From a virus (lineage: Duplodnaviria > Caudoviricetes): a stretch of DNA of 64,000 bases. The stretch lies in the IMG/VR virus record IMGVR_UViG_3300025912_000012, positions 32,001 to 96,000 of that record; one strand, given 5' to 3'. Below, piece by piece: positions 24,582 to 42,527 of the stretch (position 1 is its first letter; each line of letters begins with the position of its first letter). The notes beneath the pieces are model-generated. The model did no database searches. It was not told the origin of the DNA and saw only the letters and a program-made list of their open reading frames with translations. The position numbers and the translations under genes are program-made.

Positions 24582-25751
24582 ATGGAAAAGATCAGTGACA
24601 GGCTGTGGAGCTGGGCGTCCATCCTGGAACCGACGACACGGGAGCAGGCTCGTCAGGCTTCGACCATGCCTTTCATCTACCCACGCTACGTGCTCATGCC
24701 TGATGCGCACGTGGGTAAGGGTGCCACCGTAGGGTCAGGGATACCCACGCTGGAAGCGATCATGCCCGCTGCAGTCGGGGTGGACATCGGGTGCGGGATG
24801 TACGCGGTCCGCACTCAGTTCACCCTGGGTGACATTGACGGGGCGACAGACGATAAGCCCCTGTCTGATCTGCGGGAAGCCATCGAGAAGACAATCCCCT
24901 TGTCAGCGGGGAACTACAACCAGTACACTCGCGGGGACATCCGTGACCTGGTTGGGGAGCTGGAATCCCTCGACGGGTACGAGGACGCGGAGCAGATCGC
25001 GGGAAACTGGCGTCTCCAGCTGGCAACCCTCGGGAGCGGGAACCATTTCATCGAGGTGTCCAGCGATCAGGAGAACAGGGTATGGCTGTTCCTGCATTCC
25101 GGAAGCAGGGGCGTGGGGAACAGGCTGGCTCAGAAGCACATCAGGATCGCACAGGAACTATGCAAGGGCAAGCCTCTCCCCAACAGGGACCTCGCGTACC
25201 TGACGGAAGACCAGAGGGAATTCTGGGATTACATCAGGGACCTGCGCTGGGCTCAGCAGTTCGCTAAGCTGAATCGCGAGGGGATGATGCGCAGGGTCAT
25301 CAGGTGTTTCGAGGAATGGATCGGGAACCAGGTAAAGAAGACCGAGGTAATCCAGTGCCACCACAACTACACGATGCAGGAGATTCACGAGGGACAGAAA
25401 GTGTGGATGTCCCGGAAAGGGGCTATCGACGCTTCCCTCGGGGTCATGGGACTCATCCCGGGGAGCATGGGAGCAGCATCCTACGTGGTGGAAGGCAAGG
25501 GGAATTCCCTGGCTTTGAACACCGCGCCCCACGGGGCAGGCAGGAACTATTCGCGTAGTGCCGCGAAGAAGAACATCACCATGGGTGAGCTTGAGGCTGC
25601 CATGGCAGGGATAGAATGGCGTCACACGAGCGCCTTCCTGGACGAGGCACCCCGGGCTTACAAGGATATCGATGTTGTCATGGAAGACGCTGCGGACCTG
25701 GTTGAAGTGCGGTACACTCTCCGTCAGTTCGTAAATGTCAAAGGGGACTAA
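24582..25751 (+). CDS. rtcB: RtcB RNA ligase
   Basis: MPDAH, VDIGCG, GSGNHF, HSGSRG, HHNY, RKGA, PGSMG, HGAGR, EAPRAYK. Confidence 0.97.
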   Translation: MEKISDRLWSWASILEPTTREQARQASTMPFIYPRYVLMPDAHVGKGATVGSGIPTLEAIMPAAVGVDIGCGMYAVRTQFTLGDIDGATDDKPLSDLREAIEKTIPLSAGNYNQYTRGDIRDLVGELESLDGYEDAEQIAGNWRLQLATLGSGNHFIEVSSDQENRVWLFLHSGSRGVGNRLAQKHIRIAQELCKGKPLPNRDLAYLTEDQREFWDYIRDLRWAQQFAKLNREGMMRRVIRCFEEWIGNQVKKTEVIQCHHNYTMQEIHEGQKVWMSRKGAIDASLGVMGLIPGSMGAASYVVEGKGNSLALNTAPHGAGRNYSRSAAKKNITMGELEAAMAGIEWRHTSAFLDEAPRAYKDIDVVMEDAADLVEVRYTLRQFVNVKGD

Positions 25752-25754
25752 ATC

Positions 25755-26375
25755 GTGCTGGAGCCACCGGTTTCGCATCAGGAATTCATGATAGTCATAG
25801 AGGACACGAACAGGCGGATGCGCCAGGCACTCATAGAGCATTACCGTGTCAACGGGATGATGACAAACACGGTGACTTACCGCGAGATATATCCGCCCGC
25901 GAAAGGGGTAAATCCCCAGCCACGAGCGGTGGCGCACCCGTCTCCTCGTGCTGCGGAGGCAGCCAAGCAGCTCGTCCCTTCCGGAGTGCATTTCACGGAC
26001 AAGCCGCGTGTCTCAGGAGCGGTACGGGAACGTTACCTAAACCACTTGCGCGAGGCTTGTGCGCAGGAGTACATTGACGTTCCTGAGATGTCAGCTCGCA
26101 TGGATGTGATGATGATCGCGAACACCGAGGACGAGCTGAAATTCCTGATCCACGACCTGCCCGCACTTCCTGAGGCGAAAGAGGAGGTAAAGGAGAAACA
26201 GCCTTCCTATAAAAGGGTTGCCGAGTTCACCGTGTATGCTATGGGAGCTAGCGTGATCTCGATCATAAGCCCCGGGCAGCTTTTCCACTGGATAACCACG
26301 GTCATAGCGCTTGCGATGTGCGGTATCGCTTTCGCCCAATGGAGCGCGATCAGGAAAAACACGAAAAAGGAATAA
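25755..26375 (+). CDS. DUF1707 (SHOCT-like) membrane protein
   Basis: RVSGAVRERY..HLREA...R...ELKFLIHDLP plus two C-terminal TM segments. Confidence 0.7.
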   Translation: MLEPPVSHQEFMIVIEDTNRRMRQALIEHYRVNGMMTNTVTYREIYPPAKGVNPQPRAVAHPSPRAAEAAKQLVPSGVHFTDKPRVSGAVRERYLNHLREACAQEYIDVPEMSARMDVMMIANTEDELKFLIHDLPALPEAKEEVKEKQPSYKRVAEFTVYAMGASVISIISPGQLFHWITTVIALAMCGIAFAQWSAIRKNTKKE

Positions 26376-26452
26376 ATGGTACCATAAGATTTCGTACTTA
26401 AACCTCTCCTGGGTAGGAAACCTGGGGTGCTAGTCAAATAGAAAGGGTACTT

Positions 26453-27316
26453 GTGAGTTTCAAGACTAAGATCGCAGCTGCTGCACTGGGGGTGTCTGCT
26501 GCCGCCGCGATGGTTGCCGGGAGCATGCCCGCTGCGCAGGCAGCCACTCTGTCGTGTACAAGCAAGGAAAGCTGCGGCGGTGCCGACCTGAACTTCTCGG
26601 GTCATGGTCCGCTGTCGCTGTCGGTACTGGATCACACGTCGGTCAACGGCGGGTTCGGTGTCAACAACGAGCGTGTCGGATTCAACACAAGCGGTCTGCA
26701 TAACGGGACGCAGGACTTCACGGTCTTCCAGACCTACGGGCAGACTACTGGTCACGGCGGGGTCTATGGCTTCGGCGACTACACGGTTATGTTCACCCCA
26801 GGCGGCGACCTTCCGTTCACGGGCACCGGCGTAGGTGGCGCAATCCAGGGTGGCGACCGCCTGGACTCGACCAACGAGACCTCGGTCCCCTACTGCATCT
26901 CGGTCGAGGACACGTACCCGATCGTGAACGGTCACAGGGCTCAGCGCTGGTCGCTGGTGCTGAGGAACTGCCTCGCGCAGAACGGTACATATTTTGTCGC
27001 GGGTAACAAGGGAAGCGATATGGCAGGCGTGGTTCACTACCCGAACCTGTACCAGCAGTTCGCCCCGACTGAGACAAGCGACGGGTTCCTGAAGTTCCAG
27101 GACGTGGCATTGAACAGTGCGCATTTCCGGCACGGGTTCGGCGGCAGGAACTTCGTCATGGATGATCGCGGGTTCGGCGGTCCGGGTACCTGGGGTATCG
27201 TCTACCCGGAGAAGGACGTGACGCAGAACGTGAGCAACCAGGAGTTCACGATCATCGGGTGCACCAAGCCGGTGACCGTGTTCAACACGCAGTATTTCGA
27301 CTGCGCTGGCGTGTAG
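26453..27316 (+). CDS. secreted protein
   Basis: Ala-rich signal peptide ending AQA-A, paired Cys. Confidence 0.8.
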   Translation: MSFKTKIAAAALGVSAAAAMVAGSMPAAQAATLSCTSKESCGGADLNFSGHGPLSLSVLDHTSVNGGFGVNNERVGFNTSGLHNGTQDFTVFQTYGQTTGHGGVYGFGDYTVMFTPGGDLPFTGTGVGGAIQGGDRLDSTNETSVPYCISVEDTYPIVNGHRAQRWSLVLRNCLAQNGTYFVAGNKGSDMAGVVHYPNLYQQFAPTETSDGFLKFQDVALNSAHFRHGFGGRNFVMDDRGFGGPGTWGIVYPEKDVTQNVSNQEFTIIGCTKPVTVFNTQYFDCAGV

Positions 27317-27322
27317 GAAATT

Positions 27323-27364
27323 TTTCCGGGAGCTTGCAGGTTTAGGCTTGCAAGCTCCCGGAAA
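27323..27364 (+). terminator. stem-loop terminator
   Basis: TTTCCGGGAGCTTGCA/TGCAAGCTCCCGGAAA. Confidence 0.7.
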
Positions 27365-27443
27365 CACTGATAGGTTTGCCTCGGATCGATCCACTCCGAA
27401 CAGAAAAACACACAGTCAGACAAGCGAAGGAACTTACTTAATC

Positions 27444-41401: not shown

Positions 41402-41824
41402 CGTGGGTAAAGTCCTCAGTTTTCCGCCAAGATGCCCGAAATGCAAGGCTCCCCCGCGAAGAGCAATAGGGAGTCAGAGCACCGGGCTGATCATCTATAC
41501 TTGCTCGGGCAAGGATAGGCATAAATGGAATAAGACGTTCACCAACCTAACCAGATAGCTGTCATGAAGACTTATTTTCCGAAGGAAATGATCCACGTGC
41601 GACGCGACGGGATGACCTTCTGCGTGATCTGCCAGTACCTGTGTGTACGCGGTCAGCGCTGTAACTGTTGCAGGCGTACCTGATGAAAATATGGATGTGG
41701 ATTAACACAGTGATAATACTGTCCTCACTTCCGCTGATAGCGGTCAGCGAGAATGCGGCAGCTGCCGCACTTATCGCCGGGGCGGTATCGACTGCCGTCA
41801 GGATGACAGTCCAGCGCTGAAAAT

Positions 41825-41896
41825 GCCCCCGGTGACGGACTCGCCTCGGAGCTTCCGAAGCTTTGATGTCTGGTTCGACTCCAGACGGGGGTACCA
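41825..41896 (+). tRNA. tRNA-Arg(CCG) with reduced D-arm
   Basis: intact acceptor, anticodon and T arms plus CCA; D region GTGACGGACTCGCCT. Confidence 0.8.
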
Positions 41897-41897
41897 T

Positions 41898-41969
41898 GGC
41901 TCGCATCTCACTGGTGTGGGAGAATGGCTGCAACCCATTCGTTGACGAGTTCGATTCTCGTGCGGGTCT
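41898..41969 (+). tRNA. tRNA-Cys(GCA)
   Basis: AATGG-CTGCAAC-CCATT, U73. Confidence 0.88.
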
Positions 41970-41985
41970 CGGAGGAGGAACAGAA

Positions 41986-42195
41986 ATGATACTGGCAGCA
42001 CAGACAGCACCGCTCGATACGTTTGATTATGTTGCCGCAACCGTCTTGTTCTGTCTCGGATGCGTCGGGCTACTGATCTGTTTCCTTTCGGAGGGATTCC
42101 GGAAGAAGCTGGGACTGGGCATTCCCGGGGGGAGTATCACGTTCGTCCTCGGGTGCCTGACCCTCCTCGGGTTGTGTGTCTTCCTTCTCCGCTAG
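41986..42195 (+). CDS. small membrane protein
   Basis: GGAGGAGG RBS, two TM segments. Confidence 0.6.
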   Translation: MILAAQTAPLDTFDYVAATVLFCLGCVGLLICFLSEGFRKKLGLGIPGGSITFVLGCLTLLGLCVFLLR

Positions 42196-42263
42196 CCCCC
42201 GATTGCGGATCTTTCACCGGGTTTCCTAAACCTGGCTGCCCGGTTCGACTCTGGGCGGGGGTG
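42195..42263 (+). tRNA. tRNA-Arg(CCT) lacking a D-stem
   Basis: GCCCCCG/CGGGGGT acceptor, TT-CCT-AA, TTCGACT. Confidence 0.78.
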
Positions 42264-42527
42264 CGTGAGCATAAATCCACCGCGAATATGCCTCCGTTGC
42301 AAGGTTTATCCCGCGACAGATGGCAGTAAATATTGTCCGCGATGCAGGAAAGCAGGAGGATAAGGAATGAGAAACCAGCCAGCCAGGAGAAAGACGGATT
42401 CAACCCGCAGGGTGAACGGAAAGCTCCAATGGCGCGTCTACGGGCTTGGATGGGTATCTACAAAAACGATGATAACTCTCGTTGTCATCACTGTCATCCT
42501 GATCGTGCTTATCTTCCTCGGTTTCTG

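Follow-up and report, generated by a model that had tools for sequence, protein, structure and literature searches.

A 64,000-nucleotide (nt) stretch of viral DNA (the window; bases 32001-96000 of the linear, 135,079-bp IMG/VR virus record IMGVR_UViG_3300025912_000012) was analyzed for its translation-related genes. These comprise an RtcB-type RNA ligase, an array of 42 transfer RNA (tRNA) genes headed by an attenuator-like leader, a peptidyl-tRNA hydrolase of the Pth2 type, and a transfer-messenger RNA (tmRNA) reduced to its tRNA-like domain (TLD). At a probability of about 0.6, we read them as separately acquired accessory genes that share one rightward-transcribed block with homing endonucleases and a Tad2-like gene, and not as a co-inherited, mechanistically coupled system. 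Each component is a known phage accessory, and the phage is an unusually complete example. As the sequence-only reading of this DNA had stated, the components share one strand; it is the plus strand, and all are contained within 18 kb:

24582..25751, plus strand: RtcB-type 3'-phosphate/5'-OH RNA ligase, 389 amino acids (aa) (PF01139, E 1e-107, profile positions 1-426 of 426)
30229..30428, plus strand: putative attenuator at the head of the array, with a promoter-like site, a 28-codon open reading frame (ORF), hairpin A, and a terminator-like hairpin followed by a U-run
30429..42263, plus strand: tRNA array with 35 strong, 6 weaker and 1 marginal tRNA genes (ARAGORN, Rfam and a covariance model, R1)
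36344..36760, plus strand: Pth2-type (archaeal/eukaryotic type) peptidyl-tRNA hydrolase, 138 aa (PF01981, E 2e-27, 96.1 bits against a cut-off of 23)
40506..40587, plus strand: TLD-only mini-tmRNA, 82 nt (RF00023 match at 40506-40590, 48.9 bits against a gathering score of 47)

The sequence-only reading had described these genes as an integrated module that senses, replaces, repairs and recycles in answer to tRNA-cleaving defences. The identities of the components held, and replacement and repair are reasonable roles for them; the claim of one coupled system was not supported, as the distribution of the components across other phages indicated. Among 59 IMG/VR contigs with an RtcB relative, at least four tRNAs were counted within 10 kb of RtcB at three loci only (L008, with 22; L039, with 17; and L019, with 4), and the remaining 56 had at most two. 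RtcB was found in none of the five phages that carry the closest Pth2 relatives (Myrna, Baka, WXIN, RsoM2USA and phiM19). Furthermore, neither RtcB nor Pth2 was found in the 694 kb surrounding 79 other mini-tmRNAs. These results indicate that the components are not inherited together in other phages.

The layout of the region also spoke against an integrated system. RtcB lies upstream of the array at a distance of 4.7 kb, behind eight or so ORFs; RtcB and the array have their own promoter-like sites (that upstream of RtcB was placed at 24174 by the promoter scan), and the array itself is interleaved with unrelated genes. No translation-related match was obtained for the intervening ORFs in Pfam, PHROGs, NCBIfam or Atlas, and their look-alikes in Atlas are actinobacterial hypothetical proteins. 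The stretch and its assigned members, as annotated by the profile scans, are:

25755..30227, plus strand: about eight ORFs that separate RtcB from the array (scanned with Pfam, PHROGs and NCBIfam)
25755-26375, plus strand: DUF1707/SHOCT-like protein
28711-29160, plus strand: SLT-type transglycosylase

The word "integrated" in the earlier description can be taken in a functional sense only. The record is a free viral contig, not a prophage, and carries phage genes in its flanks, namely those for a ribonucleotide reductase, a primase-helicase, a DNA methyltransferase and glycosyltransferases. The record has a CheckV completeness estimate of 88% and a GC content of 57.6%. When the whole 17.8-kb region was compared with 50,697 isolated phage records by megablast, only single tRNAs were matched; these include tRNA-Lys, which is 90% identical to that of Streptomyces cluster-BE phages such as Gilson. 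The primase shows 30-35% identity to primases of Streptomyces, Arthrobacter and Gordonia phages, and the closest phage relatives of RtcB, at 55% identity, come from Rhodococcus and Mycobacterium phages. Since the primase, the RtcB relatives and the tRNA-Lys match all come from actinobacteriophages, the virus is probably a novel large phage of ~135 kb with an actinobacterial host. In addition, SmpB, a CCA-adding enzyme, Pth1, archease, an ATP-dependent RNA ligase and Ro60 were searched for in the whole record and none was found. Therefore, host factors are needed.

RtcB enzymes join 3'-phosphate or 2',3'-cyclic-phosphate ends to 5'-OH ends in a GTP- and Mn-dependent reaction. The identification of RtcB in the phage was borne out by the full-length PF01139 match and by the catalytic motifs DIGCG, GSGNHF, HSGSRG, HHN and PHGAGR, which line up with their counterparts in Pyrococcus horikoshii RtcB (PH1602). 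Relative to that enzyme, the motifs for metal binding and guanylylation (D/C, NH, H, H and HGAGR) are kept; the corresponding residues of the P. horikoshii protein are D95, C98, N202-H203, H234, H329 and H404. The predicted active site is thus intact, and RtcB would re-seal tRNAs or other RNAs that have been cut to 2',3'-cyclic-phosphate and 5'-OH ends.

The presence of Pth2 was likewise confirmed. The protein exceeds the cut-offs of PF01981 and TIGR00283 (89.5 bits against 82), falls below that of the stricter NF003314 (96.1 against 126), and aligns with solved Pth2 structures. The DAG-T motif is kept (QDAGLT, compared with RDAGxT of 2zv3), and an insert of ~27 residues is present relative to the archaeal enzymes. 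The start codon was placed at ATG 36344, which is preceded by a GGAAGGG ribosome-binding site, and not at 36302; therefore, the Pth2 ORF is clear of tRNA-Leu. Its expected role would be to free tRNAs from dropped-off peptidyl-tRNA.

The mini-tmRNA begins on the base directly after tRNA-Val(GAC). Its acceptor stem, GGGGAUG/CAUCUCC, contains the G3:U70 alanine determinant, the D-loop is the tmRNA-specific GGGUUCGAC, and the P2 helix encloses an A-rich loop and a 4-bp hairpin, after which GGAC and the T-arm follow. All features looked for in a canonical tRNA-like domain are present (G3:U70, D-loop GGNUUCGAC, GGAC with the T-arm, and the 3' end CUCCA). The 3' end CUCCA is followed by CGG; therefore, CCA is not encoded. 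Only 33 nt separate the D-loop from GGAC, with no resume codon, tag ORF or pseudoknot domain. As judged from these features, the element is not a canonical tmRNA and is best described as one cut down to its tRNA-like domain. The mini-tmRNA of the sequence-only reading is thus borne out as an RF00023 match above the gathering score that lacks an mRNA-like domain. The frame GCC GGU GAU GCC GGA ACU GGC UAG was considered as a mini tag and rejected, as homologues do not contain such a frame, and a tmRNA_permuted match (17.8 bits) downstream of the element was rejected as a chance match.

No matches were returned by blastn with the 85-nt mini-tmRNA. A structure-aware pattern, consisting of tmRNA features only with a 10-40 nt gap, matched 79 IMG/VR contigs, in which the elements are 61-87 nt long. 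All 15 pattern matches passed to Rfam scored as tmRNA (56-75 bits), and in the two Rfam alignments shown ~304 central positions of the RF00023 model are deleted. In an alignment of 45 distinct sequences (the element and 44 further IMG/VR homologues), 89% of structure cells were paired, compared with 64% in shuffles. Compensatory changes were observed at all seven P2 pairs and at three T-stem pairs, P2 being 92% paired, and the covariation signal was lost once partner columns were slid. Approximately 13 of the 79 elements adjoin tRNAs and most stand alone. In three contigs (L062, L073 and L087), the first tRNA called after the mini-tmRNA is tRNA-Leu(CAA), which follows it directly on the 3' side; 28 tRNAs are present in L073 and 26 in L087. 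In a further contig (L078), a RAGATH-24 RNA (RF03049, 54 bits) was detected at 871-1073, ~1 kb upstream of a mini-tmRNA.

A precedent for such an element exists in mycobacteriophage DS6A, which Hudson, Lau and Williams 2014 (PMC4131195) list as "TLD only". The DS6A element was located at JN698994 28478-28557, between gp33 and gp34, where the GenBank record carries no annotation for it; it scored 56.2 bits on the family model (R2), although it is absent from the seed of that model. On the basis of homology, the mini-tmRNA belongs to a known and widespread family of phage RNAs, and the TLD-only form is not new. According to the same paper, a similar molecule strongly inhibits tmRNA, perhaps by SmpB titration (PMC4131195, citing Mao et al. 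2009). By this analogy, the mini-tmRNA more likely inhibits host trans-translation than rescues ribosomes: it would be charged with alanine, bind host SmpB, and thereby compete with host tmRNA and block tagging, which is not canonical rescue.

The attenuator-like leader lies at the head of the array. A near-consensus promoter-like site (TTGACA-17-TATCTT with TG, scoring 10/12) ends at 30257 and is followed by a 28-codon ORF from ATG 30264 to 30350, which is possibly leaderless. The fold of the 167-nt leader has an energy of -76.5 kcal/mol, compared with -50.6 in shuffles (z-score -6.17), and forms three hairpins, of which the last is followed by UUUU, 13 nt before tRNA-Trp. In minimum-energy folds, masking of the 5' portion up to 30327, as by a ribosome stalled mid-ORF, allowed an extended hairpin A to sequester GGGAGCC and abolished the terminator, which returned when masking extended to 30363, as by a ribosome at the stop codon. 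The ORF contains one CTA, which is one of the two codons that the phage tRNAs cannot decode, and two non-adjacent Trp codons, and the tRNA-Trp gene is next. In this folding model, the leader would behave by classic attenuator logic, and ribosome stalling may raise transcription from the first promoter. The putative attenuator of the earlier reading thus folds like one. Another plus-strand hairpin (41207-41225) was considered as the attenuator and rejected, as the leader at 30229-30428 fits the description better.

No close relative that would allow a synteny or covariation comparison of the leader was found in the phage collection or in IMG/VR, and no Rfam family matched the leader at E <= 1; the model is of one sequence. 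A second promoter-like site of the same score is present at 30840-30868, after the first two tRNAs; hence the leader could gate at most part of the transcription of the array. The support for the suggested sensing step is the folding model of a single leader without relatives. No description of a transcription attenuator over tRNA genes in a phage was found in the literature. On the folding model, the attenuator-like leader is the part of the region that could be new in kind.

The inventory of the array agreed with the earlier count of 42 tRNA genes, of which 35 were rated strong, 6 weaker and 1 marginal. With default settings, ARAGORN identified 35 tRNAs, all on the plus strand, between 30429 and 41402. 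At 90% stringency (-ps90), five more were called: Ser-GCT at 36917, Ser-CGA at 37478, Ile-TAT at 38144 (also matched by Rfam at 49.4 bits), Arg-CCG at 41823 and Cys-GCA at 41898. In addition, the covariance model R1, trained on 32 type-I tRNAs of this phage and run unfiltered over 24000-44500, recovered the weaker tRNA genes and added two candidates, at 42195-42263 and 30929-31002. Rfam, searched at E <= 1 over 19.5 kb, missed nine of the ARAGORN tRNAs. Individual members of the array that required separate assessment are:

30929..31002, plus strand: marginal tRNA-like cloverleaf, complete, anticodon GAU (Ile-like), with an aberrant 9-nt T-loop (R1, 16.6 bits)
39809..39883, plus strand: initiator-type tRNA-Met(CAT), recognized by a C1xU72 mismatch and by an anticodon stem that closes with three G-C pairs (Rfam, 58 bits)
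41825..41893, plus strand: tRNA-Arg(CCG) with a reduced D-arm (ARAGORN -ps90; R1, 32.5 bits)
42195..42263, plus strand: tRNA-Arg(CCT), paralogue of tRNA-Arg(CCG) (R1, 31.1 bits, E 4e-9)

The marginal cloverleaf sits downstream of the second promoter-like site. The two arginine paralogues share an identical acceptor stem (GCCCCCG/CGGGGGT) and the reduced D-arm, and tRNA-Arg(CCT) shares the T-arm too; both were missed by default ARAGORN and by Rfam. Lowering the ARAGORN stringency to 80% (-ps80) gave 135 calls, mostly false and including permuted "tmRNAs"; candidates at 30244, 30506, 37186 and 41255 were rejected, and a Val(CAC) call at low stringency proved to be a misread tRNA-Arg(CCT). No other credible tRNA was found in the rest of the genome beyond the array.

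The remaining statements of the sequence-only reading about the inventory were also confirmed. All 20 amino acids are served (ARAGORN, Rfam and R1), and an initiator is present, with the hallmarks given above. Neither ARAGORN nor R1 found Leu-TAG, Leu-TAA, Ala-CGC or Val-CAC. Most tRNAs lack an encoded CCA, which is carried by 4 of the 40 ARAGORN tRNAs and by neither of the two R1-added candidates; in nearly all array tRNAs, the discriminator is followed by C and then by a non-C base. A G1.U72 wobble replaces the G-C pair in 16 of the 41 ARAGORN-called RNAs (the 40 tRNAs and the mini-tmRNA), compared with 0-20% in seven other phage arrays. This frequent pair might influence how the RNAs are processed, or how Pth or tRNases recognize them.

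Codon usage was determined from 94 long non-overlapping ORFs (88 kb), and standard wobble rules were applied. Under these rules, the phage tRNAs decode 59 of the 61 sense codons, and only the rarest codon in these ORFs, UUA (1.5 per thousand), and the third rarest, CUA (3.4 per thousand), are left out. AUA is read by the UAU anticodon, so that on the usual reading host lysidine synthetase is not needed. Decoding could therefore run on phage tRNAs alone except at UUA and CUA, with charging, CCA addition and processing dependent on the host. The set would free phage translation to a large extent from the host tRNA pool, whose shortfall could arise from host tRNases, phage-induced shut-off or a mismatch in codon usage.

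Several protein genes are interleaved in the array, together with small ORFs without assignment:

31269..31772, plus strand: PD-(D/E)XK endonuclease ORF, likely a homing endonuclease (PF11645, E 7.5e-21)
32383..32700, plus strand: HNH endonuclease ORF (phrog_3106, E 1.2e-27)
34416..34652, plus strand: Tad2-like (Thoeris anti-defence 2-like) small protein, 78 aa (PF11195, E 3.2e-9, 37.6 bits against a cut-off of 25)
35764..36234, plus strand: NlpC/P60 peptidase ORF (PF00877, E 7.5e-16)
38932..39231, plus strand: ORF with a phage zinc-finger DNA-binding domain (PF24623, E 1e-7)

The match of the Tad2-like ORF spans the whole 73-position PF11195 profile, and a putative anti-Thoeris role is suggested by this match; tblastn against the 50,697 isolated phages gave no match for this protein. 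The tail of the PD-(D/E)XK endonuclease frame runs through tRNA-Pro(CGG) on the same strand and may truly be encoded by tRNA DNA. The 5' end of the longest zinc-finger frame covers tRNA-Glu(CTC), also on the same strand, and this ORF probably begins only downstream of the tRNA, which ends at 39025. Among the last tRNAs are a 38-aa Cys-rich ORF (41565-41681) and a 69-aa hydrophobic, two-helix membrane-like ORF (41986-42195) with a strong GGAGGAGGA ribosome-binding site, both of kinds without annotation. Between 23500 and 43400, 29 terminator-like sites were counted, with 15.4 +/- 3.5 expected, and 22 of the 29 lie on the minus strand of this plus-strand-coded block.

The purpose of so large a tRNA set admits more than one explanation. 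It could serve codon compensation only: in a phage of 57.6% GC infecting a much GC-richer actinobacterial host, the tRNAs would serve the A/U-richer codons, and RtcB, Pth2 and the mini-tmRNA would be unrelated accessories. The GC content of the genome is in line with this explanation, as are the nearest relatives of several proteins, which come from phages of high-GC actinobacteria, and the manner in which the set follows phage codon use, leaving only the rarest and third-rarest codons undecoded. However, Leu-CAG, Gly-GCC, Ala-GGC, Pro-CGG and Arg-CCG are also present, which a GC-rich host should supply abundantly, and compensation would not require a near-complete set, initiator included. We regard compensation alone as possible and somewhat doubtful. 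With an initiator and tRNAs for G/C-ending codons, the set is larger than codon compensation alone calls for, and replacement of a depleted host pool fits better, although host tRNases and phage-induced shut-off are not separable from sequence as the cause of depletion.

Replacement of this kind is also the core of an integrated counter-defence, in which the attenuator would sense stalls, the tRNAs replace, RtcB repair, and Pth2 and the mini-tmRNA recycle against tRNA-cleaving defences. Several observations favor such a program. The whole set occupies one strand of an 18-kb region, the leader is predicted to fold as a switch that depends on stalling, its ORF holds the undecodable CTA, and a Tad2-like anti-defence gene stands inside the array. 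In L008 and L039, two other contigs that are not related, a tRNA array adjoins or encloses RtcB, a hint of some functional linkage, and the position of RtcB beside arrays in three unrelated lineages suggests that RtcB acts on tRNAs. The common strand and the RtcB positions in L008 and L039 also weigh against our reading of separate accessories. In addition, the flanks examined around the other mini-tmRNAs were short and do not imply that RtcB or Pth2 is missing from the whole genomes, and the case for the mini-tmRNA as an inhibitor draws on one cited experiment (Mao 2009). The replace and repair steps have, moreover, been published: that phage tRNAs stand in for tRNAs cut by VapC, PrrC or colicin-type nucleases, with ligases mending the remainder, was hypothesized by van den Berg et al. 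2023 (PMC10264068) and Iyer et al. 2021 (PMC7824862). For single phage tRNAs, experiments with PARIS and retron effectors lend support (PMC11464382, PMC11555353). The integrated-module interpretation thus carries ideas that are already current over to a new genome. Nevertheless, we consider it unlikely, given that the components are distributed independently in other phages, that ~4.7 kb of ORFs without a translation-related match and separate promoter-like sites part RtcB from the array, that 39 or 40 of the tRNAs would escape the attenuator by way of the promoter-like site at 30840, and that the mini-tmRNA carries neither a tag nor a resume codon, its published analogue being an inhibitor of trans-translation (PMC4131195). 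A further alternative is tag-less rescue, in which an Ala-charged mini-tmRNA with host SmpB would take the nascent chain, and peptidyl-mini-tmRNA would drop off and be hydrolyzed by phage Pth2, leaving no degradation tags. The tRNA-like domain is complete, with G3:U70, Pth2 is 3.7 kb away in the same array, and no Pth1 is present in the record. On the other hand, no Pth2 was found near the 79 other mini-tmRNAs, no mini-tmRNA lies within 7 kb of the Pth2 of Myrna, the one Pth2 phage scanned, the published analogue is inhibitory (PMC4131195), and release without a resume codon has no known mechanism; such rescue is very improbable. It is only slightly less improbable that the leader is a true ribosome-stall sensor that switches on the tRNA set upon host tRNA depletion, that the mini-tmRNA and Pth2 form a tag-less rescue pair, and that with RtcB they make up a self-regulating anti-tRNase counter-defence program. 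Separately acquired accessories in one block remain our preferred reading.

RtcB, Pth2, mini-tmRNAs and tRNA arrays thus assort independently among phages and should be studied as separate tools. The tRNA set is among the most complete seen in a virus, its own initiator included, and the array provides a clean natural case for asking why phages carry tRNAs, whether for codon compensation or for escape from tRNA-cleaving defences. The phage is also a natural case for what tag-less mini-tmRNAs do. No literature on mini-tmRNAs under that name, or on RtcB together with Pth and tmRNA in phages, was found.

In trp-type attenuators, as in the leader described here, the translation state of a short ORF picks the antiterminator or the terminator hairpin. 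However, trp-type attenuators control biosynthetic genes, whereas this leader would control tRNA genes; its ORF, predicted to be leaderless, holds two Trp codons that do not stand in tandem, and the leader is known from one sequence. T4 Rnl1/Pnk, acting against the PrrC anticodon nuclease, and phage RtcB generally (PMC7824862) share with the present ligase the presumed role of a phage RNA ligase that reseals host-cut tRNAs. In contrast to the T4 pair, RtcB ligates 3'-phosphate or cyclic-phosphate ends directly, with no kinase-phosphatase.

The TLD-only tmRNA of DS6A (tmRNA Website tmID 11587) resembles the mini-tmRNA in its G3:U70 acceptor stem, tmRNA D-loop, P2, A-rich internal loop with small hairpin, T-arm and lack of a tag, and DS6A also encodes RtcB (gp76), 21 kb from the element. 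In DS6A the element is alone in a 60-kb temperate phage with no annotated tRNA genes, whereas here it abuts tRNA-Val in a 42-gene array and lacks the encoded CCA, as do its tRNA neighbours. Gilson (cluster BE, Stanwilliamsviridae) and Myrna have a comparable long same-strand tRNA array with small ORFs, homing endonucleases, tRNA-repair or maintenance enzymes and a tmRNA-type gene. Gilson combines its array with a 268-nt tmRNA, Rnl and Pnk and has no RtcB, whereas the present phage has RtcB, Pth2 and a TLD-only tmRNA, and the Gilson group shares with it only the 90% identical tRNA-Lys. Myrna encodes Pth2 and a CCA-adding enzyme without RtcB, whereas the present phage has RtcB and no CCA-adding enzyme was found in it. 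Large actinophages such as Gilson, Myrna and DS6A thus reach the same ends with other parts.

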